From the IMG/VR virus record IMGVR_UViG_3300033134_000083, positions 1 to 63,998 of that record: a stretch of 63,998 nt of DNA; one strand, written 5' to 3'. This document shows positions 2,349 through 38,659 of this stretch, one piece after another. The translations under genes and the position numbers were made by a program. This DNA is from a virus (taxonomy: Duplodnaviria > Caudoviricetes). A model generated the notes under the pieces. It did not search any database and was not told the origin of the DNA. It worked only from the letters and a program-made list of their open reading frames with translations. Positions within the stretch are counted from its first letter, which is position 1, and the number at the start of each line of letters is the position of its first letter.

Positions 2349-2639
2349 TCATTTCTTTTTTCTCCTCATCAGTACGATGTACTTGCCTTTGAGCTTCTTC
2401 GTCAAATGGTAACCATGGCACCCGTACGGGCACCGGTACACAGAGCGAACATCGTCAGTCAAATACGCTGCCGCGTCTTCGATGCTGGCATGCCAATGCT
2501 TACCACCACACGGACGTGCTTCCCGCTTACGGCGACGTTTACGTCCACGATGTGCAGCCCGGCGGTGAGCCAGACAGCAATACACCGCATCAGGGTTCTG
2601 CGGAAAAAACAACCGGCCACAATGCCCACATACCTTCAT
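2349..2639 (-). CDS. basic zinc-binding hypothetical protein
   Basis: CxxC, YCC and YRCPYGCHGYHLT motifs; Arg/Lys-rich. Confidence 0.55.
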   Translation of the reverse strand: MKVCGHCGRLFFPQNPDAVYCCLAHRRAAHRGRKRRRKREARPCGGKHWHASIEDAAAYLTDDVRSVYRCPYGCHGYHLTKKLKGKYIVLMRRKKK

Positions 2640-3788
2640 TCCCGTTCCTTTAGCTAAATAGTACCGTTACCGCAGCCACCACAACCAGCGTTTACGGAAA
2701 CGGCTACACCCACACAGGGCGCATTCCTCACCAACCCGGTAGTGGTAGTGAGCCATCCAGCTATGACCACACCGGCACATCATGACGTTGACCGAAGTTC
2801 CGCACCGTCCGCGAATAGCTCACTTACTGTGATATGGCGCAAAGCGTTTATCTCGCTTACTGTCACGTCGGGTATAACACGTCTGGCGTAAGCACGAGTA
2901 CGCTTTGTCAGCTTGTCCCACGGCAACGTTCCCTCGGTAGCTGAAGCAGTAAGAAGCATAGTAACCAAGAAGCGCTGACGCGCGATGCTTCCTTTTGCGT
3001 AGCTCATGGCTGGTCCTCCTCGTATGCCATGTTCAGCTGCTGGCGTACCAGCTCATCTTCCTTGGTCCACCCGTTCTGCCGCCACACGTACGGCTTGAAC
3101 GGCATCCCGTTCCTGAAACCGCGAACCACTGAATGTCCAGTGATTGGCAAGTGTTCGTCGCCCGTGTGGCGTGCCAAACCGTCACGAGCTTCCGGTTCGT
3201 AGATACGTACGTCAATCTGTGGTGGAAGCGTCAACGGCTTCCCGTCCACTTTCCGCCACCGGTAGTGGCGCCACTCTTCTCTCATTGTCGTTTCCTATTC
3301 CCTTGAGCTTCTGCTCCGCAGCCAGTGCGCGCTGCTTCCAGTATTCACGCTCTTCGCGTGCTTCGGCTAGTTTTGTAGTGAGTTCGTCGTACGTCATGGG
3401 CCGAAACGTCACTTTCGTTCCTCCAGTTCACTGAGCGAAAACCATTGCTCCAGCTCTGCTGGTGTCCTCACGTCAGCGGTGTGCCATCCGTACTCGGACA
3501 CTCGCAGCCAATCGCCGGACTCCAGCAGGTGGATAACCTCCACCTGCCAGCGTCCGTCCTTCGTCATGTAGCTCATCGGAGTTCCATGCGGCCGAATCCA
3601 TGGCCGGGAATGTTGCTGCACCGGGGCCAGTGGTAACACTGGCTAATACGGTCACCGTTGTGGCACTTCACGAACTGCCTATCCGGCTCACACTTGCTGC
3701 ACCCATCTTCTTTGCCGGGGTGCCAGAACCCGTTGCTAGCTATGTGGCCAGCAGCGGGAACACCAGGCATGACTAGCTGCGGCTTCAT

Positions 3789-6845: not shown

Positions 6846-9701
6846 ATGCCTAAGGGCGGAGCAGTTCTAGCTGGATTGAGAGCAGCCCAATCCACCGCTG
6901 TTAACCCAACCATTCAGCCGTTGGGCGGCAGCGTTTCTCCGTTGGCTGCGCAGTATTCACAGTGGACACTCGGTCGCACACAGCAATCGACCGCTCTCCC
7001 GAGAGACCCAATTGAATTTTTGACTGGTGCCTTCGGCCCCCTGAGCCCCATCCAGCCCGTTGGTATCGACACTCCACCACCCGATGCGGAACGACCCGAA
7101 CCACGGCGCTGGCAGTACCCCGTCGGGTGGAACATGCCGGTTGGCATGCCCGGCACCGAAGGACTCAAACTAGCTGACTTCCAAACCCTGCGCACCTACG
7201 CTGAGGTGTACTCCGTCGCTAGAGCATGCATCCAGCTACGCAAAGACGAAATGCTCGGCATCGGCTGGGACATCGGCCCCACCGCTGACGCAGCCAAAGC
7301 TATGCGAGGCAGCAGCAGCGCCATGGCCGACTTTGGCAAACGCCGCGACGAAGCACTCAAGTTCTTCACCCAACCCGACCCCAACTACAACGACTTCACC
7401 AGCTGGTTCTCCGCAGCCCTGGAAGACATGTTCGTCATCGACGCGTTGTCGGTGTATTTGCATCCCACCCGCATCCCCGGCAAGGGCCTGTTTGGCACTG
7501 ACTTGGGCGGGTTGGACATTATCGACGGCAGCTCCGTCCGTCCACTGCTGGACCTACGGGGTGGTTCACCTAGCCCACCCAACCCCGCATACCAGATATA
7601 CCAGTACGGCATTCCCCGCGTTGACTTGATGACCATGCTAGCCGAACAAGACATTAAAGACTTGGGTAAACCGGTTGCGCAATACCGGGGCGACCAGCTT
7701 CTTTATCTGCCCCGATACCCGAGAACGTGGACGCCGTACGGGCAAGCCCCGTTGGAACGCTGCATCATCCCCGTTATCACGGGGTTGCGTAAGCAGCAGT
7801 ACTCCATGGATTACTACCTGGAAGGTTCCATTCCCGGCGTCTACATTTCCCCTGGCGACCCGAACATGACGCCAAACCAAATCCGTGAAGTTCAAGACAG
7901 CCTGAACGCTATCGCTGGTGACGTGGCGTACAAGCACAAGGTGTTGATGCTGCCCGCTAATAGCAAAGTGGAGCCGCAAAAACCACCAGAACTAGCCGAC
8001 CAGTCCGACGAAATCATCATGACTCAAGTATGCATGGCATACAACGTCATGCCGATGGAGCTAGGCATTTCGCCGAGGGTGAGCGCTACCCAATCAACGG
8101 GTGCAGCTAACCAGATGGCTAAAGCCTCGCAGGACATTCAGGAACGCAAGTCGCTTGGTCCTGACTTGCTATGGCTAAAGGCTGCCTTGTTCGACCGCAT
8201 ATTGCAGGACTTTTGCGGGCAAATGGACATGGAATGGAAATGGGATGGTTTGGAGGAAGATGAGGACGAACAAACCCTAACCACACTCCTTGTAGCCCAA
8301 ATCGGCGCTGGCCTGTCCTCCATTGACGAAGCACGCATTGAACTAGGTCGCCAGCCATGGGGCCTACCCATTACTAGCGACCCAGGCTGGGCGGGACAGA
8401 TGGGCTTCACACCACTAGGCCAAATCAGCCTCACAGGTGCACCAGAACCCGGAGTCGCCCCACCCACTCTTCCGCAGCCCGGTCAAGGTGGCCAGCCCGG
8501 TACCCCATTCTCTCCTGGTGGCACCACCGCAGGCCCCCCCTCAGGTGCGTCCCCACAGTCTCCTATGGCGCGTATACCCGCTGCCGGTGCAGCACCCCAG
8601 CAAGCTAACGCTGGACCGGCTACAGCTAAACCTACGCCGTTCCCTGGTGGTACCCCAGCTCATGCTGCTGCTCAAGCAATAGCTTCAGCCGAGCATGCCC
8701 ATCCCATTCCTAAAATGGCAGGCGAGCTGGCCGCTTCCACTCTGGCTAACGCTGGGACGGTGGACCCGCCTACCAATGGTAAGTATAAAGCGACTCTAAG
8801 TGAGCTAGATGCTCTACGCCGCCATCTGCACAAAGGACGCCAAATCAGCACCTGGGAACGTCGCCACATCCCCGGCTCCACCCTCGCTAGCATCAGCGAA
8901 GACCTCGCTAAGGGTTTGAGCATCGACCAAGCAGTGGACGTAGCCGCAGCGCTGCTACCCAAAGTAATCGAAGGAACCATACTCAAGGTCGGTCCCGAAG
9001 GGTTCATTCACGGCTATGTATGCGTACGCCCACCCTGCGGCAAGATAGGTGACGCAGTAGACCACTCGGTCCACGGCCCCGGCGTCGTCACCCACGTAGA
9101 CGACAACGGCACCATGCACGCCCGGTTCGCTGATGGCACCGAAGGAAAACTAGGCAAACCAAAAACATCCATGGAATCGGCAGTACGCCAGCGCCGCATC
9201 GACGCTGCCGTTGCCCAAGCTATGCACCCTCAAGGCCGGGGAGACGAAGCAGTACTGCCCTGGACTAGAGGCGCTGACCCAGAAGAATCCGCTCAGCGTT
9301 TGCAAGAAGCGACCGCTAAAGCACCACACGAACTAACCGACGAAGATGTACAAGGACTCACCTACGAAGACAGCCTGAAACTGCTAACTCACGTAGCACA
9401 CGGCTCTCACGAATACAGCGAAGAACGAATTGACAAAGCAGTGAACGACCTTCAGCAGCAAATGCACGAACTTAAGGACATGGCTCAGCGAGAGATAAAA
9501 GACGAGCATGACATTGAGCTGCTGAAAGCCACCAAACAGAAATTCTTCTGGCACACCGGCATGGTCCTCGGCGGAATTGCCGTAGGGCTAGCATCCATTC
9601 CACTCGCAGGCCTTCCCGCTATCGTTGCTCTAGTAAGCGGCGCGCTAGGAGCATTCCCTGGCCTCGGCATGGAACTCGTTGACCTCATTCGAAAGTGGTA
9701 A
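6846..9701 (+). CDS. portal protein with long C-terminal extension
   Basis: First gene of the virion operon; YGQAPLE, YYLEGSIP and SIDEARIELG portal-like motifs; Pro/Gly linker, extra modules and a hydrophobic C-terminus. Confidence 0.85.
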   Translation: MPKGGAVLAGLRAAQSTAVNPTIQPLGGSVSPLAAQYSQWTLGRTQQSTALPRDPIEFLTGAFGPLSPIQPVGIDTPPPDAERPEPRRWQYPVGWNMPVGMPGTEGLKLADFQTLRTYAEVYSVARACIQLRKDEMLGIGWDIGPTADAAKAMRGSSSAMADFGKRRDEALKFFTQPDPNYNDFTSWFSAALEDMFVIDALSVYLHPTRIPGKGLFGTDLGGLDIIDGSSVRPLLDLRGGSPSPPNPAYQIYQYGIPRVDLMTMLAEQDIKDLGKPVAQYRGDQLLYLPRYPRTWTPYGQAPLERCIIPVITGLRKQQYSMDYYLEGSIPGVYISPGDPNMTPNQIREVQDSLNAIAGDVAYKHKVLMLPANSKVEPQKPPELADQSDEIIMTQVCMAYNVMPMELGISPRVSATQSTGAANQMAKASQDIQERKSLGPDLLWLKAALFDRILQDFCGQMDMEWKWDGLEEDEDEQTLTTLLVAQIGAGLSSIDEARIELGRQPWGLPITSDPGWAGQMGFTPLGQISLTGAPEPGVAPPTLPQPGQGGQPGTPFSPGGTTAGPPSGASPQSPMARIPAAGAAPQQANAGPATAKPTPFPGGTPAHAAAQAIASAEHAHPIPKMAGELAASTLANAGTVDPPTNGKYKATLSELDALRRHLHKGRQISTWERRHIPGSTLASISEDLAKGLSIDQAVDVAAALLPKVIEGTILKVGPEGFIHGYVCVRPPCGKIGDAVDHSVHGPGVVTHVDDNGTMHARFADGTEGKLGKPKTSMESAVRQRRIDAAVAQAMHPQGRGDEAVLPWTRGADPEESAQRLQEATAKAPHELTDEDVQGLTYEDSLKLLTHVAHGSHEYSEERIDKAVNDLQQQMHELKDMAQREIKDEHDIELLKATKQKFFWHTGMVLGGIAVGLASIPLAGLPAIVALVSGALGAFPGLGMELVDLIRKW

Positions 9702-10863: not shown

Positions 10864-13800
10864 CTACTCCCACTACTCAGCAGCAGTCACCTCCGCAGCC
10901 CAGCGCTCTTGATGACCTCATCGCCCTGCTCCTGCTCACCAGCCCTGCTCTAGCAGCCTGGATAGCTACCCGCCGCAGCAGCGTCCGGAGCATGACCAAC
11001 ACCCGTCTAGCTCAGCTAGCAGCCGTTCTACGTGGCTTCCAGCAGTCAGCACTAGCCGGTGAACCAACCAATCCAGATGACCTGGAACACCAACTCAACG
11101 CTGTCCTAGCCGGTCCCGCTGTCCTCCCAGCCGACCAGCTACCCGAGCCAGGTTCCACGGGAAACACCTACCGTGGCCAGCCAGCTACCGGCCCAGCGCA
11201 AAGCTCCGCTGCTAACGTCGGGCAGACGGAAGTATCCGCTGCTATTGGTGCTGCCGCACATAACGTATACCGCAGCGACCCGGACGTGGACTACTCCGAA
11301 TGGCTAACCGCCGAGGACGAAAAAGTCTGCCCTATCTGTGTAGCTAACCAGGAAGCAGGCCCGGTTCCTATTGGCGCACCGTTTCCATCAGGGGTGCCGT
11401 TTCCACCGGCGCATGTGAACTGCCTACCGGGGGATGCCCTTGTATCGGCCCGTAGCCGTATCACGGGTGCGACGTCTCGGATATACGACGGTGAGCTGGT
11501 CTGCATCCGCACTCTGGCTGACAAGCTCCTTTCCGTCACCCCCAATCATCCGGTACTGACGGACCATGGCTGGATTGCGGCTGGTCTCCTGAAGAAAGGA
11601 GAAAACGTAGTTAGCGCTAGCGAGAGTGAGCGGAAACCGGGAATTGACTACGATAACGAGAACATGCCAGCCCGCATTCAGCAAATAGCGGAAGCGTTCT
11701 TGTGCTCGCGCAACGTGACTACCGCTGAAGTGCCATTGACCGCCGAAGATTTCCACGGCGACGGAGCTGGTAGTGAAGTCAGCATTATAGGGACCTATCG
11801 CAGTTTGCGTCCCGTACTCAAGACCGAGAGAGTTCAAGTAGGTGGCAAACAGCCGTTCCAATGCGGACACATGTACATCGCTCGGCGCGGCTTCACGGGT
11901 TTGCGCTCTAGCGATTCGCCGTTCCAGCGAGTCGGTATTTCCACGCCGAGCCACGTTAGCAGCAATAGTAAGAGCGCTACGCTCTTCGGCAGTAGTTTGC
12001 GCCATGCGGACGTACATGCTTTCGCTACGCCCTCTGGGCTTGACGTCGTTTTGCAGCAGGATGCGGCGGATAACGTTACGACTGACGCCAAAAGATTCAG
12101 CAAGCGCTTTTTCGCTCTCACCCTTGGTGTAGCGGTCGAGCAGGTTGCTGAGGTCTGGCGGGTCCCATTTAGCGGGCATGTGTATAACCTTGAGACAGTT
12201 GATGGGTGGTACATCGCCAATGGCATTGTAACTCACAACTGCCGGTGCACGACTACTCCCAGTGACTATCGTGCGGTGCCTGCGTTTGAAGCTCAGCAGG
12301 AAGCAATGCCCATGCGCCGTTTCGGCCTGCCGCATACTTCAGCGAGCCGGGAACGTGAACTGCAGAACGTGCCCAGTGAAACAACCGTGCTTCATGTAAC
12401 AGCAGAGCTAGAAAAAGGCGCCCCTGAGGGGAACATTTCCGGTGTCACCTTCGGTCCGCTTGCTAAATGCGTCTCCTGTGGCTGCGGTCTACCCCATGAT
12501 GACCACGGAGACGCCCGTAACATTACCCAGGAAGACGTTGAAGCCGCAGGAGCCGCAGTGGGTATAGCACCCGGCCAAGCCGCATCCAACATTGCTGACG
12601 CTTGGCGTGCGATGATGGTAGACGAAGCTGGCGCCAGGCAAGCGGACCAGGCATCCAAAGGCTGGCACGACGCGTGGCTGCATGAACTACGCGGCGGCCA
12701 CGGCGAATGGATTGGCGTTGGTGGTGACGTACCACACTTCGCTCAGCATGGCTCCACCCACGTCGAAGTAAAACCCCTCGTTAACGGCGACCACGAAGAC
12801 ATCAAACAGCGAGTTGGTAACCAGCTAAACCACCAAGCACAATGGGTGCCTAACCTTGCAGTCAGCTACCACGCTCACGTAACACCCGACAACGAACCCG
12901 ACTCTGGGCACCACCAATGGGGTTCCATCGTCATCCGCCAGCATGAACTATCAGACGACCAGCTACCCCACACCGTAGCCCACCAAATGGGTCACGCCGT
13001 TCACGACGCATTCCAAGGCGGTGCCGCCACCCAATACAACTCCAAACTGGGCGACATAAATCTGTGGCGCAAACTTTCTGCGGCTCTCGGCGTCAAAGAC
13101 CCGCCATTCACTCCTCGTAGCCACGGACGTGGTTACGTAACTCCTATGGTGTCCACCGACTGGGTGCGCCGCAACCGGGCCGCTATCCGGGACCAAGTCT
13201 CTAACCAAGCCACCGCTAACGTGGACGAGTTCATCGCCGAACTATGGGACCAGTTCACCACATCACCTAACCCTAGCCCCGTCGCTCAAATATTCGGCGA
13301 CTACGTGATGCAAAATTTGCCGTCACGCACCCACAACCCCCTTCTCGGGGAACTAGCCATGGCCGGTGGCAGCGTCGGCGGCCGCCGCAAATCCATGCAA
13401 GACTACTGGATAGCTAAAGACCTCCGCACTGCCTGGGAACACGAACTACGAGACCGTCACGGCAAATGGGCTAAAGCCGTTACCGAAGCACTGAAAACCG
13501 CACCCGACGCTCATGTAGCATCGGCTGATCGCAACGCTGAACATGTCGTGTTCACTATCGGCGACCCCAAGACCGCTGACCACGTTGTCACTATCGTGCC
13601 CGGCATGAACCCGCACTGGGAACATTTGCCCGCCGAAACAAAAGCAGCTTCCCGGATGAAAGCAGCCGTCGAAGCCAGAACCGGTAAAAAAGTCGCTGCC
13701 ATTCTCTGGGCTGGCTACAAACCACCGCAAAACTTTGCTTCGGCTAGCGACAAACTAACCGCGCAACACGCAGCTAAAGACCTTATGCGCTTTCAACGCC

Positions 13801-15371
13801 AGCTACGCAAAGACAACCCCAACGCCCACCGCACCGTTATCGGTCACTCCTACGGCAGCGTCGTCTCCGGTGAAGCAGCCCGCCACCTACCCAACTTCGC
13901 CGACGACCTCGTGCTCATTGGCTCACCCGGCACCTCGGCACACAAAGCAACCGAGTTCAACGTCCCCGACGGTCACGTATGGGTAGGAGCCCACTCCAAA
14001 GACCCCGTAGCTGGCGTATCCCGAGAACTACGCTTCCACTACGGCGGCAGCCCAGCCCGGCCAGCCTTTGGCGCAAAGGTATTCAACTCCGAAGTGCCAG
14101 GGGCTCAGTTCAGCACTCCGCTGCACAGCAGCGTTGGAGTGCTCGGACGAATGTGGCCCCAGACCAGCGAAGCTGACCCCGTAGCCATGTCAGCAGGAGC
14201 GCACTCCAGCTACTGGCGGCCCAACTCCAACGCCTGGAACGCAATGACTGCGATAGCATCAGGCGACCCTATTATCGAAACACCCGGCATTCCCGGCCAG
14301 CCACTCGTCGTAAAAGGCTGGCACGACGCCTGGCTACATGAGTTCCGTGACCCACGTGGCCACTGGGTGCACGAAGGACCACCACCAGCAGTACAGGACA
14401 TGGTCAAACACGGGTGGACGTTCCACGGCACCCCCGGTTCCCACCAGCACGCTAGTTTCCTATCCTCTGCTGCTGACCTAATGCGAAGCCAGCCACAGCT
14501 ACGTCCCCTAGCTGAGACGCTGCGCCGAGCATCAGCGGAGATGAACAAAAAACACCCCGACGTAGCCCACCAAGTACTCCTAGGTGCAGCTAAGCAAACA
14601 CACTTCGCAGCCCTGAAAACCGGTGACGTTAACTTGCGTCACGCAGCATTCGCGTTGCATTACCACGGCGACCTCCTAGACGACTTGCACCTCACCGGTC
14701 GCAGTGACTTGCCGGAAACTCGTGAAGCTGCGGATGCACGCCGCTCCCTGGAAGCCGACCTGAAGTCCGGCCAGCACGACGTTCAATACCCTGGCCATGG
14801 ACAAATGGGCGAAACGTCGTTCGTCCGGTTCAATAACGGTTCCCGGTGGGTGCGTAAAGGTGACGCAGCTATCGACCAAGACCGCGAAATTCTCTCCAGT
14901 CGGGTAGCGGATGCCCTCGGCGCTCGGGCACCGGAAGTTATCCCCGACTCATCATGGAACCCTACCGACAAACACCCCGTTGTCTGGGAGCCCATGCTGC
15001 CGCACCCTACCGCTATCGACTTGGAACGCGGCAAAGACTACGATCCCGACAAAGTGTTCTCCGGCCCTGAAGGTCAGCGAATTGGCGTTCTTGACAAAAT
15101 CATATCCAACCAAGACCGCAACGACGGAAACTGGCTCGTAGACAGTAACGGACTTCCTGTTCCTATCGACCACGGCCAAGCTTACTTTGACAACGACTAC
15201 GCCCCATCCAGCGAGTTTTCCACCAAACTAGACCCGACATCCATTTCGCCTGCGCAATGGGATGAGTGGGCAGGAAAACTCGGCGCTCTCAGCCCAGAGT
15301 TCTCCGCGCTCAACCGAGGAGACTGGTTTCAATCAATGATGCAGTCATTCCAAAGTCTGAGGCCATCATGA
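10860..15371 (+). CDS. MuF (phage head morphogenesis) polyprotein containing an intein and several effector domains
   Basis: WLTAEDEKVCPIC...PPAHVN|CRC MuF motif split by an intein; zincin-like, alpha/beta hydrolase (GHSYGS) and kinase-like (DRNDGN...IDHG) domains; frame is open from CTG 10860 (ORF track start is ATG 10992). Confidence 0.85.
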   Translation: MTTPTTQQQSPPQPSALDDLIALLLLTSPALAAWIATRRSSVRSMTNTRLAQLAAVLRGFQQSALAGEPTNPDDLEHQLNAVLAGPAVLPADQLPEPGSTGNTYRGQPATGPAQSSAANVGQTEVSAAIGAAAHNVYRSDPDVDYSEWLTAEDEKVCPICVANQEAGPVPIGAPFPSGVPFPPAHVNCLPGDALVSARSRITGATSRIYDGELVCIRTLADKLLSVTPNHPVLTDHGWIAAGLLKKGENVVSASESERKPGIDYDNENMPARIQQIAEAFLCSRNVTTAEVPLTAEDFHGDGAGSEVSIIGTYRSLRPVLKTERVQVGGKQPFQCGHMYIARRGFTGLRSSDSPFQRVGISTPSHVSSNSKSATLFGSSLRHADVHAFATPSGLDVVLQQDAADNVTTDAKRFSKRFFALTLGVAVEQVAEVWRVPFSGHVYNLETVDGWYIANGIVTHNCRCTTTPSDYRAVPAFEAQQEAMPMRRFGLPHTSASRERELQNVPSETTVLHVTAELEKGAPEGNISGVTFGPLAKCVSCGCGLPHDDHGDARNITQEDVEAAGAAVGIAPGQAASNIADAWRAMMVDEAGARQADQASKGWHDAWLHELRGGHGEWIGVGGDVPHFAQHGSTHVEVKPLVNGDHEDIKQRVGNQLNHQAQWVPNLAVSYHAHVTPDNEPDSGHHQWGSIVIRQHELSDDQLPHTVAHQMGHAVHDAFQGGAATQYNSKLGDINLWRKLSAALGVKDPPFTPRSHGRGYVTPMVSTDWVRRNRAAIRDQVSNQATANVDEFIAELWDQFTTSPNPSPVAQIFGDYVMQNLPSRTHNPLLGELAMAGGSVGGRRKSMQDYWIAKDLRTAWEHELRDRHGKWAKAVTEALKTAPDAHVASADRNAEHVVFTIGDPKTADHVVTIVPGMNPHWEHLPAETKAASRMKAAVEARTGKKVAAILWAGYKPPQNFASASDKLTAQHAAKDLMRFQRQLRKDNPNAHRTVIGHSYGSVVSGEAARHLPNFADDLVLIGSPGTSAHKATEFNVPDGHVWVGAHSKDPVAGVSRELRFHYGGSPARPAFGAKVFNSEVPGAQFSTPLHSSVGVLGRMWPQTSEADPVAMSAGAHSSYWRPNSNAWNAMTAIASGDPIIETPGIPGQPLVVKGWHDAWLHEFRDPRGHWVHEGPPPAVQDMVKHGWTFHGTPGSHQHASFLSSAADLMRSQPQLRPLAETLRRASAEMNKKHPDVAHQVLLGAAKQTHFAALKTGDVNLRHAAFALHYHGDLLDDLHLTGRSDLPETREAADARRSLEADLKSGQHDVQYPGHGQMGETSFVRFNNGSRWVRKGDAAIDQDREILSSRVADALGARAPEVIPDSSWNPTDKHPVVWEPMLPHPTAIDLERGKDYDPDKVFSGPEGQRIGVLDKIISNQDRNDGNWLVDSNGLPVPIDHGQAYFDNDYAPSSEFSTKLDPTSISPAQWDEWAGKLGALSPEFSALNRGDWFQSMMQSFQSLRPS
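11421..12239 (+). mobile_element. intein 1 (273 aa) in MuF
   Basis: CLPGD block A, VTPNHP block B, SGHVYNLET block F, THN|C block G; removal restores PAHVNCRC. Confidence 0.92.
11424..12179 (-). CDS. antisense HTH + Vsr/DUF559-like PD-(D/E)xK endonuclease inside intein 1 (251 aa)
   Basis: HTH (SEKALAESFGVSRNVIRRIL); SALERLF...Q.AIGPYNADF...VAVEIFGGQWH...LLNAGWHVL. Confidence 0.85.
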   Translation of the reverse strand: MPAKWDPPDLSNLLDRYTKGESEKALAESFGVSRNVIRRILLQNDVKPRGRSESMYVRMAQTTAEERSALTIAANVARRGNTDSLERRIARAQTREAAPSDVHVSALERLFATYLNSLGLEYGTQTAIGPYNADFTTSSVAVEIFGGQWHFSGSHVARAQERFRYLLNAGWHVLVIVVNSRFPLTLASANYVFSFLQETSRNPAMVRQYRMIGGDGKELVSQSADADQLTVVYPRRRTRDTATGRYKGIPR

Positions 15372-17131
15372 TTACGGTTCACACTCAAGCAGGTAAACGC
15401 GGCACCATCCACATCGAAAACAACCGCCTCAAAGGGTCCACCCCTGCACTGCAACGCGTCGCTGACCAAGTACAAAGCCGCATCGGCAGTGCTCAGGACT
15501 CGTACCACTATCTGCTGCGCAGCTCCAATGGTTATGTCCAATACGCGGAAGCAGGCCACCAATCACCCGATTCAGCTAAGGTACAGCTACCCGACTCACA
15601 GGGACGCCCATCGGAGCTATGGATTGCTAAAGAAACTGTAGCCATGCTGGAAGACGTGGAAAAAAGAAAGTCTCCGCGAGGTAACGCTCAAACTTTGCGT
15701 GACTACTGGACCGGCCATGGTCACGGGGGACCCACCCACCACGCATTCGAGCGAGCCATTGCGTGGGGTACGCCCGGTGACTTCGACCGCTGTGTAGCCA
15801 TGGTCACTGAACACGCCAAAATGAGCCCGGAGCACGCCAAGGGCTACTGCGTTACCGAAGACGCTCGCGTGCTTTCGGCTGGAAGCTCACTCCGATTGCT
15901 GGGCAGCTTTGAACGGTATTACATCGGGGATGTCATCGCTATTACTACTTCCACCGGTAACCAGCTCACCGTTACCCCGAATCACCCGATAGCAACACGG
16001 AGCGGCTGGGTTCCGGCTGCGGAACTCCAGCCAGGAGACCACGTCCTGTGCAGCCTCAGCGCTGAACGCATGATACGCCAAGACGAAGATGACATCGTAC
16101 CCCGCATTAAGCAGGTAGCGCAGTCGCTGTCCTTGGCGTTCACCACGGTGACGCGGGCCGTAGATTTCCACGGCGATAGTACCGATGGCGAGGTCCACGT
16201 TGTACGGGCCAACAGCCTTTTGGTGGACGATGCCCTCAACGCCATGCTCGCTGAGCATGCGGGCGAACTGCTCCTCGTCGGAAGCGACCATGGGATTCGC
16301 CTGGCGCGTGCGGGCAGCCTTGAACCGGTTCTTAGCTCCAGTTCCGCCGGGAGTCCCGTAAACGCGGGGCAGGCTAGGGTCAGCTGGTATCCGATGGTCA
16401 GCGGGGATGTGGTTGCGTCGCAGAACGTTGTAGACGCTGCTGATCGAGCAGCCCAAAGCCGAAGCGACTACTTCGGCTTTATCTCCGGAAACGAAGCAGC
16501 TGATGATAGTCGCTTCATCCAGGTCGGCCTGGAACCCGTTATTCGCGTGCCTAATGGCAACGCAGTTTGCTCTCAACACGTCGCTGATGGTGTTCCGGCT
16601 AGCGCCAAGCCGTTGAGCAACGTCGCTAACCTGAAGTCCGGTTTTGTAGAGAGCAACTACCTCGGCGTCCGTGTAAGTCCGGTGACGAACGAAGCCAGCA
16701 GCACGGCGCGGACCACGCTGGACTTCAACGCCTCTCTCGCTGAGAAGCTTCTTTACGGTTCGATGGCTGACTCCGAGACTCGCCGCGATTTTCGTCAGTG
16801 GCTCTCCGTCGATGTAGCGTTGCGCGATGTTGTCTCCGTCGAGCGAAGGTCGTTCAGCGGTCATGTCTACGATCTTAGTACAGATACCGGAGTCTTTACA
16901 GCAGAGACTTTGGTATCTGGCCCGTGCAATCTTCGCCACCATGACGCGCTAGGCATCTGGCCCGCTACCCACGCTAAGGACATTAGGGAAGCAGAAGGCA
17001 AGGAGAAGGTTTCTGCAGCCAGTTTGGCGAAAGTCGGACCGCACGGCTGGGCACATGACTGGAAAGACGTAGACCCTGCGTTACTGGGTTTGGTCAGAAA
17101 AAGAGCAAGCCGACCAAGCGGCCCGGTATGA
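15368..17131 (+). CDS. head-associated protein containing intein 2
   Basis: ATGA overlap with the MuF stop; host reads LRDYWT...AWGTPGDFDRCV...AKGY|CNLRHHDALGIWP once the intein is removed. Confidence 0.75.
   Translation: MITVHTQAGKRGTIHIENNRLKGSTPALQRVADQVQSRIGSAQDSYHYLLRSSNGYVQYAEAGHQSPDSAKVQLPDSQGRPSELWIAKETVAMLEDVEKRKSPRGNAQTLRDYWTGHGHGGPTHHAFERAIAWGTPGDFDRCVAMVTEHAKMSPEHAKGYCVTEDARVLSAGSSLRLLGSFERYYIGDVIAITTSTGNQLTVTPNHPIATRSGWVPAAELQPGDHVLCSLSAERMIRQDEDDIVPRIKQVAQSLSLAFTTVTRAVDFHGDSTDGEVHVVRANSLLVDDALNAMLAEHAGELLLVGSDHGIRLARAGSLEPVLSSSSAGSPVNAGQARVSWYPMVSGDVVASQNVVDAADRAAQSRSDYFGFISGNEAADDSRFIQVGLEPVIRVPNGNAVCSQHVADGVPASAKPLSNVANLKSGFVESNYLGVRVSPVTNEASSTARTTLDFNASLAEKLLYGSMADSETRRDFRQWLSVDVALRDVVSVERRSFSGHVYDLSTDTGVFTAETLVSGPCNLRHHDALGIWPATHAKDIREAEGKEKVSAASLAKVGPHGWAHDWKDVDPALLGLVRKRASRPSGPV
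15848..16924 (+). mobile_element. intein 2 (359 aa), paralogue of intein 1, with a non-canonical C-terminus (VSGP|C)
   Basis: CVTED block A, VTPNHP block B, FSGHVYDLST block F; terminal Asn absent. Confidence 0.85.
15887..16864 (-). CDS. antisense 3xHTH + Vsr/DUF559-like endonuclease inside intein 2 (325 aa)
   Basis: Three HTH repeats (IAASLGVSHRTV, VAQRLGASRNTI, VASALGCSISSV); QKAVGPYNVDLAIGTIAVEIYG...LRYLLNAGYDVI. Confidence 0.85.
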   Translation of the reverse strand: MTAERPSLDGDNIAQRYIDGEPLTKIAASLGVSHRTVKKLLSERGVEVQRGPRRAAGFVRHRTYTDAEVVALYKTGLQVSDVAQRLGASRNTISDVLRANCVAIRHANNGFQADLDEATIISCFVSGDKAEVVASALGCSISSVYNVLRRNHIPADHRIPADPSLPRVYGTPGGTGAKNRFKAARTRQANPMVASDEEQFARMLSEHGVEGIVHQKAVGPYNVDLAIGTIAVEIYGPRHRGERQGQRLRYLLNAGYDVIFVLAYHAFSAEAAQDVVSWLEFRSRNPAAPCCYRVIRGNGELVTGGSSNSDDIPDVIPFKAAQQSE

Positions 17132-17292: not shown

Positions 17293-20200
17293 CTGTCCGA
17301 GTTCCGTGACCCCGTGGCGCAGAAACTAGCTCAAGCTCTTAAGAGCTATAACCCGGACCAGCCTCGTGGCGCACACGGCGAGTTCGGTTCGGACGGTCAG
17401 TCGGCTCAATCAGCTGCTCAATCAGCGCAAAAAAAGTCGCTGCTGTCTCAAGCAAGCGACTTGGACCAAGAAGCAGCGGACATCCAGTCCACCATTAAGT
17501 CGCTGAAAAAAGAGCAAGCATCCTACCTAGCGCAAGCTAAAGCAGCTGAAGCGTCGTCTAGCTCCTCTAGTAGCTCAACTTCCTCTACGTCAACGTCACC
17601 AACGGTAACTGGAACAGCAGCCGGTTCCACTTCCGCTACATCTGCTGCCGCTTCCACGGCTACTACAGCAGCCCAGTACGAAGCTGACGCTGCTGCAGTA
17701 GGTAAGCAGATAACCACTCTGCAAATCAAAGTCAACTCGTTGCATGCTCAAGCTAACCAGCTACGCGCTCAAGCAGCAGGCATCAAGTCGGACGGGACAG
17801 ACAGCCGCCTACTATCTGGCATTCGCCAAGACCTTGGGCAGTCTGTCCCTAACCAGAATTATATACCCAAATCAACACGGAGGTCCGTGGCGGCCACTCT
17901 AACCGACCAGCAGGAAGCTAGCTTCAGCTTCCCGATATTGAAAACTGAGACGACCGCTGATGGCGACCTGCTGGTTTACGGTAAGGCCACCGATGGAACC
18001 GTGGACACGGACGACCAGATTGTTGACCCTGGCTGGTCCAGTAAGGCACTAACCGACTGGCTGTCCACTGGCGCTAACCTACGTGTTCAGCACAACCCGC
18101 ACCGTGACCCCGCCGGTATTGGACTCCAAATCGACGCTGACCGTGACGGCGACGGTAGCCACTACCTCAAGGCTCTGGTAGTAGAACCAACTGCTAAGAA
18201 GCTCGTCAGCAAGGGTGCGCTGCGCGCTTTCTCCGTTGGCATTATGCGGCCCCGCATTGTTACGGATATGAAAGCTCGCGGCGGGCGGATTGTTGACGGT
18301 GAACTGGGCGAAGTCAGCCTCGTGGATCGCCCTGCTAACCGCAACTGCACCTTCACTCTCGTCAAAGCCGACAAGAAGGGCCGTGCCGAGTGGTTGGGTG
18401 CCTTGAACAGCGACCCCGACTTCCTCGCTAAGTCACTTACCCCATCGCCTGCTGATGTAGCCCGCATGATTGGTAAGCGAGCAGTTGAACCGGGCCCCAG
18501 CCGCCCCAACGTCCAGCAGAGCGAGATTCCCACCTACTTCGCTGACCCGGTAGCTAACCGGCTCCAGGAAGCACTAAGACTGGAGAAGCGCGACCTGCCC
18601 GGCGGCGGCAACGTGGACTCTGGCGGGCAAGACCGCAGCGACATGCCACGTAAAGACTTCGCTGGTCCGAACGGCACGTTCCCCATCGAAAGCCAAGGCG
18701 ACGTAAGCGACGCCGCTAGCCTGGCGCACCATGCTGACAACCCGTCCGCTGTCCGTAGCCGCATTCGCTCCATTGCCCGCAGGAAGTGGCCGGACATGAA
18801 ACTGCCACCGTCTCTCGACGGCGACGGTGACGATAAAAGCGCCGAAGCTGACTTGGAAAAAGCAGGCATGAAAGCCTGCCCGAACTGCGGCAAAAATTAC
18901 CACGCCGACTCCAAGATGAGCAAATGCGAAAACTGTGGCCACAAACTTCCCGTGGTTAAAGCCGACAGTGAATGCTCCACTTGCCACGGCAGCGGCAAAA
19001 TCCGCGAAGGTCACATGAAGTGCCCGGACTGCGGCGGCAGTGGCGTTATGAAGGGCGTTTCGAACTTCGGAGACAAGAAAGCCCCCGCGTTTGGCTCCGA
19101 CGAAGACGAAGAAGACGACAACGAGAAGGTGGCTAAGGGTCACGACCAGGACATGGGTGACCGCATGCAGGAAGACGACGATAACTCCGGCGAAGGCGAC
19201 GGAGACAATGACGATGATGGCCAAGACACTTCTGACGACGATGGCGTAGGCGAAGAAGACAACATTAAGCAGGCCGTTCCCACTACTGGGAAACTGTTCT
19301 GCCCGTCCTGCGGCAGCAAAGTCAAAAAGTCCGGCAACTTCTGCCCTGGTTGTGGCGCGAAGCTAGCCATGCCCGACAAAACCAAACACGTCATTCCGCA
19401 TTCTCACCCCTCGCCTGGTGACAATGTACGGGGCAAGAAGACTAAGCCCGTTGCTCCACACCGGGAACCAGACGGTCCCCAGACCGAAGATTTCGAAGCA
19501 GATTCCGGCATGCAAGACGGGGATGCAAAGGGGGGTAAGCCACCAGAGCCGTCGCCCACGTGGACTAAGGCACGCGGTTCCACCGACCCGTCCACTGGTG
19601 TAGCGCACACTCCTGGCACTACCGAGGGTCCCAACCCTGGTAGCGAAGAAATGCGGCCTGAGGAAGAGTACGAAGTCGGCCACGGTGAGGAAGACAACCG
19701 TCCGTCTTCACCCGATGGGATGGCTCAGTACGCGAACATGAAGATGCGTGTTACCGAAGCGCCGTACACCATCATGCGGATGCACGACGCTCTATGTGCC
19801 GCCTACGACGGTTTCGACGTGCTAGCTGAATACCCCAGCCTGAAGACTTTCGCCGATGCAGTGGACGCTGAGAGCTGGCGGGAGCTAGCTAAGAACGTTG
19901 TGGCTGAAGGCAACCTGCACCTTGGGCAGAGTGCTCTAGCCGTTGCTAACGCAGCCGAAGCACTCAAAGCAATGGACCCTGCTGCGGTGGAAGACGGCCG
20001 GGCACTACTCCGCAAAGACTTCACCAGCATGTACCCCAACGTGCACTTGAGTCCGGGCCAGATTACTGCTCAGCAGTTCAACCGGCCCTACATCAGCGAA
20101 GGTCACGCACCGCTGTCGGCTGCACCCATGGGAAGCCAGCCATCGGCTCCTACCCCACCGGCCCCTCCGTCTGCTTCCCAGTTCACCCGAGGCCCACTCA

Positions 20201-20931
20201 CCGAAGGTCACGAGTCTCCTAGTCCCGGCAATGGCGGCAACCGCCCAGCAAGCTTCGCTCAGCCTTCCATGGGCAGCTTGAGCGCCCCTAAGGGCGACGC
20301 GTCTGCTGCCATTGCCGTCATCCACGACCACATTGTCAACGAATGGCCGGACCTGTGCACCATGAGCACCACCTACGTCCAGCCAGCAGCTAAGAACGGC
20401 ATCGACGCTACCAGCGGTGCTGGCAGCCAGATTGCTAACCAGATTCGCCGCCACCAGCAGCGTCAGCAAGCTCAAGCTGGTCCTCAGAACATCACCAAGG
20501 GTGAAGGTCTCGTGCCAGTCACTAAGAAGCAGATTGGCAAGGTCGCCGGTAGCGGCCTCACTGAGAAAGCACTCAAGAACGTTCTCGCAGCCGAGCTGAG
20601 CAAAGCTACAGCTACCCTGACCGATACCATCAACAACTACCGTGAGCAGAACGAAATGCTGGTTAAGCAAGTCGGTGACTTGCAGCACCAGGTTGACATT
20701 CTCGGCTCACAGCCCGACCCGAACCAAGCTCCAATTCGCAGCGTAACGGCCTATCCGCCCAATCTCGAAAGCGGTGCTGTCGCCCAGGACCGGCGGTCCT
20801 TGGTGGACGAGATGGGCGAGAAGATTCGCGCTGAAAAAATGCAGTTCCTTAAGTCGCTTGCTAACAGTGGCGACCCAGTAGTGCGTGAAGGCGCTCAAGC
20901 CCAGATTCAGAAATTGCTGATGGCGCCGTGA
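17293..20931 (+). CDS. prohead maturation protease / scaffold polyprotein
   Basis: VYGKAT...D.DDQIVD...NLRVQH...AFSVGI...EVSLVDRPAN protease core; DUF6582-like module, zinc ribbons, acidic tract, C-terminal coiled coil; second in-frame GTG start with RBS at 17887. Confidence 0.85.
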   Translation: MSEFRDPVAQKLAQALKSYNPDQPRGAHGEFGSDGQSAQSAAQSAQKKSLLSQASDLDQEAADIQSTIKSLKKEQASYLAQAKAAEASSSSSSSSTSSTSTSPTVTGTAAGSTSATSAAASTATTAAQYEADAAAVGKQITTLQIKVNSLHAQANQLRAQAAGIKSDGTDSRLLSGIRQDLGQSVPNQNYIPKSTRRSVAATLTDQQEASFSFPILKTETTADGDLLVYGKATDGTVDTDDQIVDPGWSSKALTDWLSTGANLRVQHNPHRDPAGIGLQIDADRDGDGSHYLKALVVEPTAKKLVSKGALRAFSVGIMRPRIVTDMKARGGRIVDGELGEVSLVDRPANRNCTFTLVKADKKGRAEWLGALNSDPDFLAKSLTPSPADVARMIGKRAVEPGPSRPNVQQSEIPTYFADPVANRLQEALRLEKRDLPGGGNVDSGGQDRSDMPRKDFAGPNGTFPIESQGDVSDAASLAHHADNPSAVRSRIRSIARRKWPDMKLPPSLDGDGDDKSAEADLEKAGMKACPNCGKNYHADSKMSKCENCGHKLPVVKADSECSTCHGSGKIREGHMKCPDCGGSGVMKGVSNFGDKKAPAFGSDEDEEDDNEKVAKGHDQDMGDRMQEDDDNSGEGDGDNDDDGQDTSDDDGVGEEDNIKQAVPTTGKLFCPSCGSKVKKSGNFCPGCGAKLAMPDKTKHVIPHSHPSPGDNVRGKKTKPVAPHREPDGPQTEDFEADSGMQDGDAKGGKPPEPSPTWTKARGSTDPSTGVAHTPGTTEGPNPGSEEMRPEEEYEVGHGEEDNRPSSPDGMAQYANMKMRVTEAPYTIMRMHDALCAAYDGFDVLAEYPSLKTFADAVDAESWRELAKNVVAEGNLHLGQSALAVANAAEALKAMDPAAVEDGRALLRKDFTSMYPNVHLSPGQITAQQFNRPYISEGHAPLSAAPMGSQPSAPTPPAPPSASQFTRGPLTEGHESPSPGNGGNRPASFAQPSMGSLSAPKGDASAAIAVIHDHIVNEWPDLCTMSTTYVQPAAKNGIDATSGAGSQIANQIRRHQQRQQAQAGPQNITKGEGLVPVTKKQIGKVAGSGLTEKALKNVLAAELSKATATLTDTINNYREQNEMLVKQVGDLQHQVDILGSQPDPNQAPIRSVTAYPPNLESGAVAQDRRSLVDEMGEKIRAEKMQFLKSLANSGDPVVREGAQAQIQKLLMAP

Positions 20932-36012: not shown

Positions 36013-38659
36013 GTGCCGAGTCTGGAAGATGTGACTCAGCGCTTCTTAGGAAGCGTTCATCGCTGATGTTGCCGAGTATGTAGGCCCCCTGCGCGACGCT
36101 ATCGTCGCGGCGAAGGAGTTCGCTGACGCTAACCACCAAGACGATGATGCGCTGGAGGAGCTAAGAAGCGAACTAGACCGCACCCGTGAGTCCCTGGTTG
36201 ACGTACGCACTGCGCTAGATGAGACGCGGGACTCAATCAGCCACTTGGATAAGTCGGTTGAAACCCTGGCGCTAGCTATGGCGCATACTAGGGATGACAC
36301 CGAAGAAACCGCTGAAGCCATGGACCAGCTACGGGACCATGGCGAGGAAGCAGCCGAGTCACTCAAGCAAGTCCGTGACGCATCCATCGAAGACGACGTT
36401 GCGCTTGACGGGGTACGGGACCGAGCCGAAGAATCAGCCAGTGCTCTAAGCCGACTACGCGACAAAGCCATCGAAGCTGCTGGTGCGCTCACCGGGTTGG
36501 GAGCTGCTGCCGATGCCGCTAAGGGTGCGGATGCTGCAGGTGGCGGCGGTATGGGCGGCATGGTCTACCTCATCGGCGCTCTTGTCATTGCTATCGCTGG
36601 TGTGCTCCCCGCAGTAGCCGCTATGGGAGCATCCATTGGCGCTTTCGCTGGATTTGCTATCCCCACCTTTGAGAAAGTCTGGAAAGCAGCCTCTTCCGGC
36701 AAAGCAGCTATCGACGCGCTACCCGCACCGCTAAGGACAGCCGCCGAGGAACTAAAAGGTCTCGAAAACGAGTACCTCAGGTTTGCTAAAGCGTTCCAAA
36801 CTCCGGTAGCGCAAATCATGTCCCAAGCGCTGGGAATTGCTTCCGACATTTTGCCCAAGTTCATACCATTGGCAATGGCGGGCGCTAAAGCGGTCAGCGC
36901 ATTGCTAACTGTACTTGACCAGGGCCTGCGTTCCACCGGTTTCACTGATTTCCTGGCCCTTATGACTAAGATGGCCGTGCCCGCTACGATAGCGATTACG
37001 CACTTGCTTGGCGCCCTTATGGGATTCCTGGGAACGGTCATTCGGGAAGTAGCACCAGCGTCCATTCCGTTCACCAACTTCTTGACCACTATCGTCAAGG
37101 ACCTGACTGGGCCGCTGGCTGCTGCGCTAAAGCTAGGCGTGGAACTGCTCACCGGCTTGGGTAAAGCACTCGAACCGCTGCTGCCGATGCTGATGACGTT
37201 TGCGTCGGTACTGCTGAATGACGTGGGCAGCAGCTTCATGGAATTGGTGCCGCTGTTCAAAACGCTAGCCACTGATTTGGTACCAGCGTTGCACGCAGCG
37301 ATTAAAGGCATCGAGCCAGTTTTCGCTAACTTGCTGACACCCAACAGCCCACTCCTTTCGGCGTTCGCTGCGCTACTCAAAGTGCTGCCCGATGTGGTTA
37401 AAGCCTTTACCCAGTTGATGAACTTTATTGACACCCACCCATTTATGACCAGAATAGCAGTCGACATTCTATCCACTGTTGGCGCTATTTTTGCGTTCCA
37501 GAAAGTTATCGGGCTTGTCGCCGTTGCTCTAAAGCTCCTGCTAGCTCCCGTCATGGCCATTGTGGACGCCATGAAAGCACTGAACTTGGCGTTTGGTTTG
37601 TCCGACCCCGTACTAGCCCTCATCGTTATCGCCATCGCTGCGCTAGCTGTTGGGCTGTACGAACTGTACGAACACTCCAAACTAGTACGCGACATTGTTC
37701 ACGACGTAGCCCAAGCGTTGAAAACCGCTTGGGACACAGCTCTGCACGCAGCAGGCGACGTAGTGAGGTGGTTCATTTCCGGACCCCTGGCTGCCATTAA
37801 AAGTGCTATAGCTGATTTGGCTGCTTGGTGGAAAACTCACGGCCAAGCCATGGAAGAAGTGGCTAAAGTTATCTGGACAGCCATTTCCACTGACATTAAG
37901 GTAGCGTGGGACCTCATTGTTGCAGTCCTGAAGGTAGGGATGGCGGTTCTGCAAGCTGTCTGGGGTGTAGCGTGGGCCATCATAAAAGGCGTCGTTGAAA
38001 CCGTCTGGAACGTTATTAAGACTATTGTGGATGATACTTTCCACGAAATACTAGACATTGTTGGAATCATCCTAGACTTGCTGACTGGGCACTGGCACCA
38101 AGCCTGGGAAGACATGAAAGCTCTTGTCAGCACAGTCCTCAATGAAACTGTTGATGTTATTGGGGAAATTCTGCGTGGCTTGGTTAGTACCATGTACAAC
38201 GCAGGAGTGGCAGCTATCATGGGGTTGGTGCACGGTATCGAGTCCGTAGCTGGCGACGTAAAGTCAGCTATCGGCGGCATCGCTCACGATATTGCCGGAG
38301 CTATCGGGCTTTCCCCAGCCGAGTATGGGCCGCTGTCCGGTTCCGGTGCACCGGAAATCCGTGGTCGCCACTTCTCCGAAGCACTTGCCCAGGGCATCAT
38401 CTCAGGACGAGCAGCAGTGCAAGGAGCTATCCGCTCTCTATCCGGCACTATGGCCTACGGTGGCGTAGGCGGCTCCATGACGGGAGCTACAAGTGCTGGG
38501 GTACACGTCACTGTCCCGGTCACCATGGCCCCAGGAATGGGGGCTCTCACGTCACCCCAGTTCCTCCAAGGCATCCAGCCAGTTGTCCAGGAAGCCATCC
38601 TGAGGTATGTGCAACTCAACCAGAGCAGCGGCATAGCCGCTTACAACCGACGTTCCTAG
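36013..38659 (+). CDS. tape measure protein, with a frame discontinuity at 36046-36058
   Basis: Long Ala/Leu-rich helical protein with W-periodic repeats and SPAEYGPLSG; main frame is open from 36050 but has no canonical start until 36245. Confidence 0.85.

Follow-up and report, generated by a model that had tools for sequence, protein, structure and literature searches.

An intein in a phage head-module gene with a predicted homing-endonuclease-like gene on its opposite strand

The stretch of DNA analysed here (the window) is the whole 63,998 nucleotides of IMG/VR record IMGVR_UViG_3300033134_000083, a 64 kb record of a phage (Duplodnaviria; Caudoviricetes) with an estimated completeness of 77%, and its subject is an insert of 359 codons in a gene of the head module. 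We conclude, with a probability of roughly 80%, that this insert is a two-strand mobile element, in which the plus strand encodes an intein of the class-1 Hint type and the minus strand, aligned with it codon for codon, a gene for a protein with helix-turn-helix (HTH) modules and a predicted nuclease domain. A preliminary description, made from the letters of the window, had recognised this arrangement and implied that it was new; the element belongs, however, to a kind of intein described recently as carrying an 'anti-sense VSR-like HEN' (homing endonuclease; bioRxiv 10.1101/2025.01.02.630785, by Gosselin, Arsenault and Gogarten, version of 2025-10-20), and is not a new kind.

The boundaries of the intein are exact, because intein-less alleles of the host gene show the junction. 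This reads '...EQAKGYCNLRHH', '...EQAKGYCNLRHHDALGYW' in an intein-less homologue and '...DQAKGYCNLRHHEALGYY' in a second one from a different phage contig, and in short wetland metagenome contigs '...AKGY' is joined straight to position 16925; the intein is an in-frame insert, absent from homologues reading '...AKGYCNLRHH', and has Cys as its +1 nucleophile. The preliminary description had placed a 359-residue intein at AKGY|CNLRHH (the bar marks the junction), with a codon-aligned antisense open reading frame (ORF) of 325 residues that starts on the block-F His codon, and the ORFs together with the intein-less alleles confirm this anatomy. Second codon positions of the two frames coincide, such that intein residue i pairs with nuclease residue 340-i, and the His codon of 'SGHVY', read in reverse complement, gives the ATG at 16862-16864; counted from its first ATG, the minus-strand ORF would be 351 residues long (15887..16942). 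The wetland metagenomes of runs X1 and X3 contain the intein-bearing phage side by side with alleles of the host gene that lack the intein ('...QAKGYCN...', '...QAKGYCAERH...'; contigs at 16925-16983).

On the plus strand, the Pfam model Intein_splicing gives a split match over residues 27-347 (E 1.1e-8; 35.5 bits, cut-off 35.8) and TIGR01445 a match of 20.9 bits (cut-off 24.5), relatives scoring 37-40 bits; the sense frame also matches an IF-2 intein model. Of the features of a class-1 intein, Cys1 is present, as are T43 and H46 of the block B Thr-x-x-His, all three being invariant in a 53-row alignment.

On the minus strand, Pfam places HTH stretches at residues 12-42, 67-99 and ~130-157 of the 325-residue protein (HTH_23, E 1e-16, with many other HTH families matching too) and one in the antisense ORF of a paralogous intein, which lies in the preceding, MuF-like gene of the window. 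The count of three repeats against one, as first described, therefore holds by Pfam, the single-module hidden Markov model (HMM) built for this analysis recognising only two modules in the larger protein. The C-terminal half is homologous to the antisense ORF of the paralogue (29% identity over 229 residues, E 1e-22), and it is through a match to this paralogue (E 7.3e-20) that the protein joins a family of 61 sequences. The family profile has as its best solved match the DUF559-type 'endonuclease-like protein' 3hrl_A (E 1.1e-6), matches the HTH pair 2lvs_A (E 7.7e-8) and reaches Vsr itself (1cw0) only at E 0.58; 48/61 members match Pfam MTES_1575 and 11/61 match DUF559. Residues E197, D224, E233 and R247 are invariant (61/61), and the His of the nuclease motif, after which R247 is the next invariant residue, is present in 53/61. 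By sequence profile, a Vsr-like nuclease domain is thus predicted in the antisense protein.

The nuclease motifs picked out previously (VGPYNVDL, IAVEIYG and LRYLLNAGY) are all found in the antisense protein, the window copy reading AVEIYGPRH at the family motif AVE(I/V)xGGxWH. The tail RNPA..YRVIRGNGELV, listed alongside them, is present as well, but it is no nuclease motif: YRVIRGNG mirrors TVTPNHPI of Hint block B, so its conservation is driven by the sense strand.

The length of the antisense ORF is by itself weak evidence for a gene, because similar open frames occur elsewhere in the window; the case rests on homology and conservation. Codon-aligned antisense frames easily stay open in GC-rich DNA, and those of 233-262 codons in the same window, none of them with a domain match, are what could lead one to dismiss the ORF as a chance mirror. 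We give this explanation almost no weight. The HTH and nuclease-profile matches are strong; moreover, as set out below, divergence in the antisense frame is dominated by third positions, a start codon and a Shine-Dalgarno-like motif are conserved, and the frame is open in phages of 43-47% GC as well; so far as sequence can decide the matter, a chance origin has been refuted.

The sense-frame centre of the intein, by comparison, has no domain match in Pfam or NCBIfam. The two inteins of the window align in the sense frame only at residues 1-119 and 319-357, and no alignment could be obtained between residues 120 and 318. One might still take the centre for a real, novel endonuclease domain of a canonical intein, in that a sense motif, DFHGD..GEV.V, is conserved there; this motif, however, mirrors the active-site strand of the nuclease, DFHGD being the exact mirror of I-A-V-E-I (residues 230-234), just as had been noticed at the outset. 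With the sense frame devoid of domain matches and unalignable at 120-318, with sense first positions changing most among relatives, and with the preprint finding no recognisable structure at this place in the examples it describes (10.1101/2025.01.02.630785), we hold such a domain to be extremely improbable.

Selection was measured in relatives, by comparing ten disjoint pairs of 61-96% amino-acid identity and counting differences per codon by nuclease-frame position and, for eight of the ten pairs, changed codons that are silent in the nuclease frame or in the host frame (Table 1). In these relatives the selected frame switches within the intein: towards its ends the host frame is constrained, in its centre the nuclease frame, and where core and tail overlap Hint-N, both are. 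When the HTH region and linker are pooled, position 3 has ~580 differences against 340 at position 1 (binomial p 2e-15). Four cultured Jerseyviruses give the same kind of contrast, with synonymous changes in the nuclease versus the host frame of 16 vs 3 in the centre, 15 vs 117 in the N-extein and 1 vs 5 in Hint-C. The earlier suggestion that the centre evolves under antisense-frame selection is therefore borne out, by site counts and synonymous counts alike, in relatives.

Table 1. Differences per codon by nuclease-frame position (ten pairs) and synonymous changes in either frame (eight pairs), by region of the element
Region	Position 1	Position 2	Position 3	Synonymous, nuclease frame	Synonymous, host frame
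Hint C-part, upstream of nuclease start (host-frame pattern)	0.277	0.040	0.040	3	35
HTH region	0.232	0.160	0.360	235	91
Linker	0.207	0.185	0.449	111	15
Nuclease core	0.114	0.034	0.162	65	37
Tail over Hint-N	~0.19	~0.04-0.05	~0.18	70	84

The architecture recurs widely. A tblastn search with the antisense protein found 109 GenBank phage records (Salmonella 61, Pseudomonas 14, Gordonia 11, then Escherichia, Burkholderia, Vibrio, Haemophilus/Aggregatibacter and others); in 7/7 records inspected the match lies antisense to an annotated head-morphogenesis or MuF-like coding sequence, and the antisense ORF is annotated in one record only (PK1), as hypothetical. A motif scan of IMG/VR gave 263 relatives. 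Taking together the 80 IMG/VR loci that were kept, three GenBank loci and the window's two, the nuclease ORF is intact, fully covered by an opposite-strand ORF and codon-aligned with it in 85/85 phage loci; the loci were gathered by nuclease motifs and tblastn, so that intactness of the nuclease is partly a selection effect, which tells against our reading, and openness of the host frame was no criterion for their choice. In bacterial and metagenome-assembled genomes of many phyla, 30/30 loci are codon-aligned and 29/30 covered, the nuclease ORF being truncated or split in two of the 30. This is a family and not a chance overlap, as had been proposed, and its antisense ORF is conserved. The two broken loci lie on genome contigs (L101, L113) and have a nuclease ORF truncated to 143 residues or split in two, with the host ORF open; they are candidates for decaying copies.

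In the overlaps of 66 loci, TTA, CTA and TCA codons are wholly absent from both frames; extein codon usage predicts 310 for the nuclease frame and 367 for the host frame. For the window copy the predicted numbers of such stop-mirroring codons are 9.2 and 14.0, and both its ORFs are fully open; the frame also stays open in phages of 43-47% GC, where 10-20 are expected.

A profile of the sense intein retrieves 11,882 representative proteins with a limit of E <= 1e-3, and still 4,743 when this is tightened to E <= 1e-30. Among 5.8 billion sequences, a single query recovers the nuclease as a called protein only 23 times and a profile only 19 times, on contigs that are nearly all <= 2.6 kb and nearly always too short for the host gene. 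Because the sense profile finds 4,743 proteins where the nuclease is called only about 20 times, annotation pipelines appear to miss a real nuclease gene in many phage genomes, and the nuclease may be said to belong to a hidden class of genes. No free-standing relatives of the nuclease were seen, in scans that used family motifs and protein searches that lacked genomic context.

Some members of the family depart from the common plan. Two or three such inteins occur in one protein in 24 of the best 150 representative host proteins (P0036-P0185). The clade of inteins nearest the window's second nuclease, that of the element studied here, comprises L006-L010, L014 and L028 and has an extra ~60-70 residues between Hint-N blocks A and B. 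At one further locus (L044, around 2417-3427, minus strand) the host reads '...PRGK AEIPGN...' at the expected Cys1, which suggests an intein that lacks an N-terminal Cys, with a putative boundary.

The signals for translation of the antisense gene are embedded in the intein and are conserved. In 66/71 non-identical loci a start codon stands in the aligned start column (ATG 46, GTG 16, TTG 4), opposite a His of the host protein (a Gln in the case of TTG), and 59/61 loci have, 6-16 nt before the start, a Shine-Dalgarno-like motif that mirrors 'YNLE' of block F. The nuclease starts 20 codons before the intein end in 61/65 loci and its stop mirrors intein codons 2-16, again in 61/65, which means that the nuclease gene is carried almost wholly inside the mobile unit.

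In Aaphi23 (L003), a promoter-like sequence, CTTACA-16-TATAAT with an upstream TG (10/12), is found at 2406-2433 on the plus strand, inside the intein and 29 nt before the nuclease start; counts of promoter matches in that AT-rich region are not above chance. In the window, a terminator-like hairpin past the nuclease stop is not above chance either. At the 5' end of the antisense message (16850-16950, minus strand), a hairpin would pair the start codon with an upstream region that has an in-frame AUG (-34.9 kcal/mol, z -2.8).

The hosts of the family are Phage_Mu_F, Phage_min_cap2 and VG15 proteins, and mapping of insertion sites, which the preliminary description had recommended, places almost all insertions at a conserved 'H-x-N|C-x-C/H' motif, with a second site at 'C-x-L|CRPWEG'; of 66 loci, the second copy in the window (AKGY|CNLRHH) alone lies in a different gene. 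Two loci (L008 and L028) are inserted at still other sites of MuF genes. Nuclease clades track the classes of insertion site, with 11 label changes against 31.3 in shuffles on a quick tree in which kin share labels. On the same quick tree the window's two nucleases fall in different clades, and since they do, the two copies are taken to be independent acquisitions, in keeping with what had been supposed.

Evidence of movement comes from related phages. Of 450 Jerseyvirus/Kagunavirus records that match the PK1 head-morphogenesis gene only 58 cover >=80% of it, that is, have the intein-bearing form, and phage ER2 is a precise empty allele that lacks exactly the 272 intein codons. Between PK1 and NCTh5 (Salmonella Jerseyviruses) the intein is 98.3% identical and the N-exteins 69.5%. 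A near-identical intein in divergent exteins, together with precise empty alleles, fits homing; for the window copy itself, empty alleles alone were found at its site.

By our own HMM, members of the family have one HTH module (21), two (38) or three (2), and the mean length of the nuclease rises accordingly, from 271 through 297 to 335 residues, so that intein length does track HTH copy number, as claimed. The further idea that the number of modules retargets specificity fares less well: nucleases with one and with two modules serve the MuF 'HxN|CRC' site class alike, which implies that module number is not tied to the target site.

It might be argued that the antisense protein, real as it is, is no homing enzyme, and that a phage regulator, or a nuclease for defence or against competitors, has lodged in the intein. 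Its HTH modules do resemble those of regulators and transposases, its nuclease role is a predicted one, and the empty site of the window copy has no DNA likeness to the sites of the nearest nuclease clade (6-9/30 bases identical, against a mean of 10). We consider this very unlikely, in that the gene is found inside inteins only, at all of the phage and genome loci (85/85 and 30/30), its clades follow the classes of insertion site (with the reservation about kin made above), and intein and gene travel together between divergent exteins.

Synthesising these findings, we suggest the following model for how the two-strand element might move. The nuclease would be made from an antisense message of its own, by way of the start codon and ribosome-binding site embedded in block F, and would then cut intein-less alleles of the host gene in co-infecting phages, such that recombinational repair could copy the entire insert. 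The plus strand, for its part, would stay open through the mirror of the nuclease, and the Hint ends would splice out a ~250-residue 'nonsense' centre, thereby rescuing the host protein.

Several properties of the window copy weigh against its being a working element of this sort. Its intein ends ...TLVSGP|C, and this Gly-Pro is unique among 240 other termini: the other loci all end xN|C (HNC 44, SNC 18, KNC 2, RNC 1; Asn in 65/65), and Asn ends 175/175 termini in the best 150 database representatives. The terminal Asn preceded by His that marks a class-1 intein is missing here; the C-terminal Asn of inteins is rarely replaced, Gln and Asp variants being known (PMC549080). A second run yielded a contig with an identical Gly-Pro junction, which rules out an artefact of a single assembly, and splicing of the window copy must be judged doubtful, because the intein ends in Gly-Pro and not in His-Asn. 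In the quick tree the window nuclease sits on a very long branch (1.75), and it has GP for the family GG and lacks the conserved Trp before His. The Shine-Dalgarno-like stretch of the window copy is weak, amounting only to TAAGAT (~16870-16880), and no sigma-70-like promoter for the antisense gene was found in the window, or likewise in PK1. The tests of selection, furthermore, come from relatives, and neither a single-protein locus scan nor a megablast of the gene against phages found a close relative of the window copy; tblastn against phages gave no match for the N-extein and one weak match for the C-extein, and a near-variant contig of 151 nt (run X2) has 10 changed codons, 4 of them silent when read as nuclease and 5 when read as host, too small a number to discriminate.

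These properties raise the possibility that the window copy is a stranded relic, one that jumped to a new gene, cannot splice, has a drifting nuclease and persists as an inert, tolerated insertion; its terminus, its branch, the altered motif around His and its weak ribosome-binding stretch would all be explained, as would its standing as the sole copy at its site among 66 loci, no second occupied allele of AKGY|CNLRHH having been found. We regard this as possible rather than probable. Both ORFs are fully open where more than a few stop-mirroring codons are predicted (see above), the nuclease still has its four invariant residues and all three HTH modules, the intein its Hint blocks A, B and F, and three metagenome runs contain the phage with an identical junction, so that the arrangement is viable. 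A more far-reaching proposal can be made on the side of a functional two-strand element: that the family is one ancient lineage spread over many bacterial phyla, its intein and nuclease gene co-extensive on the two strands, with block F doubling as ribosome-binding site and start of the nuclease and the nuclease tail dual-coded with blocks A and B, and that the window copy, having jumped out of MuF and minor-capsid genes to an unrelated one, still frees its host protein by an Asn-independent chemistry of splicing or cleavage. Taken as a whole, we think this unlikely.

How does the family compare with known systems? The preprint cited above (10.1101/2025.01.02.630785) describes full inteins with an 'anti-sense VSR-like HEN' in actinophage proteins, minor capsid proteins included, matches one of its own examples to 3R3P by HHpred, and predicts that such elements are under-annotated. 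As in the inteins described there, the family has an unsplit intein and an antisense endonuclease ORF with a Vsr-like core after a helical region, resides in MuF-type minor capsid proteins and has a sense centre with no recognisable domain. The window copy differs from the preprint's examples in its host gene, its three HTH modules and its want of a terminal Asn; the ORFs reported there typically lie outside the splicing domain, whereas in the family described here it begins within block F and extends across Hint blocks A and B, and in contrast to the preprint's actinophage set this family occurs far outside actinophages. Our family profile did not retrieve 3r3p at E <= 1. In the literature searched there is no report of the architecture outside actinophages, nor of a switch of the selected frame or of start signals embedded in block F; this search did not extend to the supplementary tables of the preprint, which may already list the Gordonia relatives reported above.

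The 'fractured genes' of Dassa et al. 2009 (PMC2677866) are split inteins with a free-standing gene for a Vsr-like endonuclease between the halves. They resemble the family in pairing inteins of phage-like DNA with a putative homing endonuclease of Vsr-like type, and in having coding regions that overlap; they differ in that the intein is split, the endonuclease gene separate and the overlaps only 6-69 bp long, where the present family has an unbroken intein that overlaps the entire nuclease gene in antisense. I-Bth0305I, an EDxHD homing endonuclease encoded in a group I intron and characterised by Taylor et al. 2011 (PMC3239194), likewise combines N-terminal DNA-binding modules, including a putative HTH, with a C-terminal Vsr-like nuclease and an association with homing; unlike it, the family is intein-borne and keeps E..D..E..H..R, and the conserved Asp at the end of EDxHD is not seen. 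Inteins with antisense LAGLIDADG endonuclease ORFs (Gorbalenya 1998; Gogarten et al. 2002; both as cited in 10.1101/2025.01.02.630785) have their endonuclease on the antisense strand as here, but from a different nuclease family. Finally, the intein that Ward et al. 2004 (PMC517821) described in a Mu F-like head protein of a Methylococcus capsulatus prophage, most similar to archaeal IF-2 inteins and taken at the time to be endonuclease-less and probably immobile, is like the present family in its MuF head-assembly host and in its IF-2 intein likeness.

Such MuF and minor-capsid inteins, once set down as lacking an endonuclease (PMC517821), now appear to be self-mobile. Complete antisense dual coding, in which the selected frame switches within a few hundred bases, should also provide a useful test for methods that detect overlapping genes, and the Gly-Pro copy would represent a natural experiment, in which such an element has landed in a new gene with no splicing-competent end.

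The features of the element are collected in Table 2. The host gene probably begins at ATG 15368, in an ATGA overlap with the stop codon of the preceding gene; the longest plus-strand ORF, from GTG 15266, is 15266..17131 (621 residues). Intein-less homologues of the host gene are known and fix the limits given for the intein.

Table 2. Coordinates of the host gene, the intein and the antisense gene in the window
Feature	Position	Strand	Remarks
Host gene	15368..17131	+	head-module gene, phrog_6439-like N-part; likely start ATG 15368
Intein	15848..16924	+	359 aa, Cys1 to Gly-Pro, then +1 Cys at 16925
Hint N-terminal part (residues 1-75, blocks A, B)	15848..16072	+	from 15890 also nuclease tail on other strand
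Block B motif TVTPNHP	15968..15988	+	mirror of antisense 'YRVIRGNG'
Intein centre (residues 76-327)	16073..16828	+	mirror of nuclease core, linker and HTH modules
Sense DFHGD	16163..16177	+	mirror of nuclease I-A-V-E-I (residues 230-234; invariant Glu233)
Hint C-terminal part (blocks F, G)	16829..16924	+	ends ...TLVSGP, no penultimate His or terminal Asn
Antisense homing-endonuclease-like gene	15887..16864	-	325 aa + stop (15887-15889)
Start codon ATG	16862..16864	-	mirror of block-F His codon
HTH module 1 (nuclease residues 8-47)	16724..16843	-	
HTH module 2 (residues 64-106)	16547..16675	-	
HTH module 3, divergent (residues ~116-160)	16385..16519	-	aligns with single HTH of paralogue
Vsr/DUF559-like PD-(D/E)XK core (residues 190-264; E197, D224, E233, H239, R247)	16073..16297	-	
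C-terminal tail of nuclease ORF (residues 265-325)	15890..16072	-	overlaps Hint-N; dual constraint in relatives
Paralogous intein 1 (273 aa) in MuF-like gene	11421..12239	+	antisense ORF 12179-11424 (-)

In the head module, a portal gene (6846-9701) and the gene for the MuF-like head protein (10992-15371) precede the intein-bearing gene. The MuF-like protein, encoded on the plus strand and host to intein 1, has 1459 residues; its C-terminal part contains an Abhydrolase_8 domain (E 1.2e-35) and there is also a weak match of PI3/PI4-kinase type, as though further enzyme domains had been fused to a MuF protein. Elsewhere in the window a 377-codon open frame (36568-37698, minus strand) lies antisense, and non-codon-aligned, within an 869-codon frame (36050-38656, plus strand), neither of them with a Pfam match. 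Downstream of the intein-bearing gene, the gene at 17314-20931 (plus strand) encodes a protein of 1205 residues that has long tracts of acidic residues and of Ser and, in its central part, zinc-ribbon motifs.

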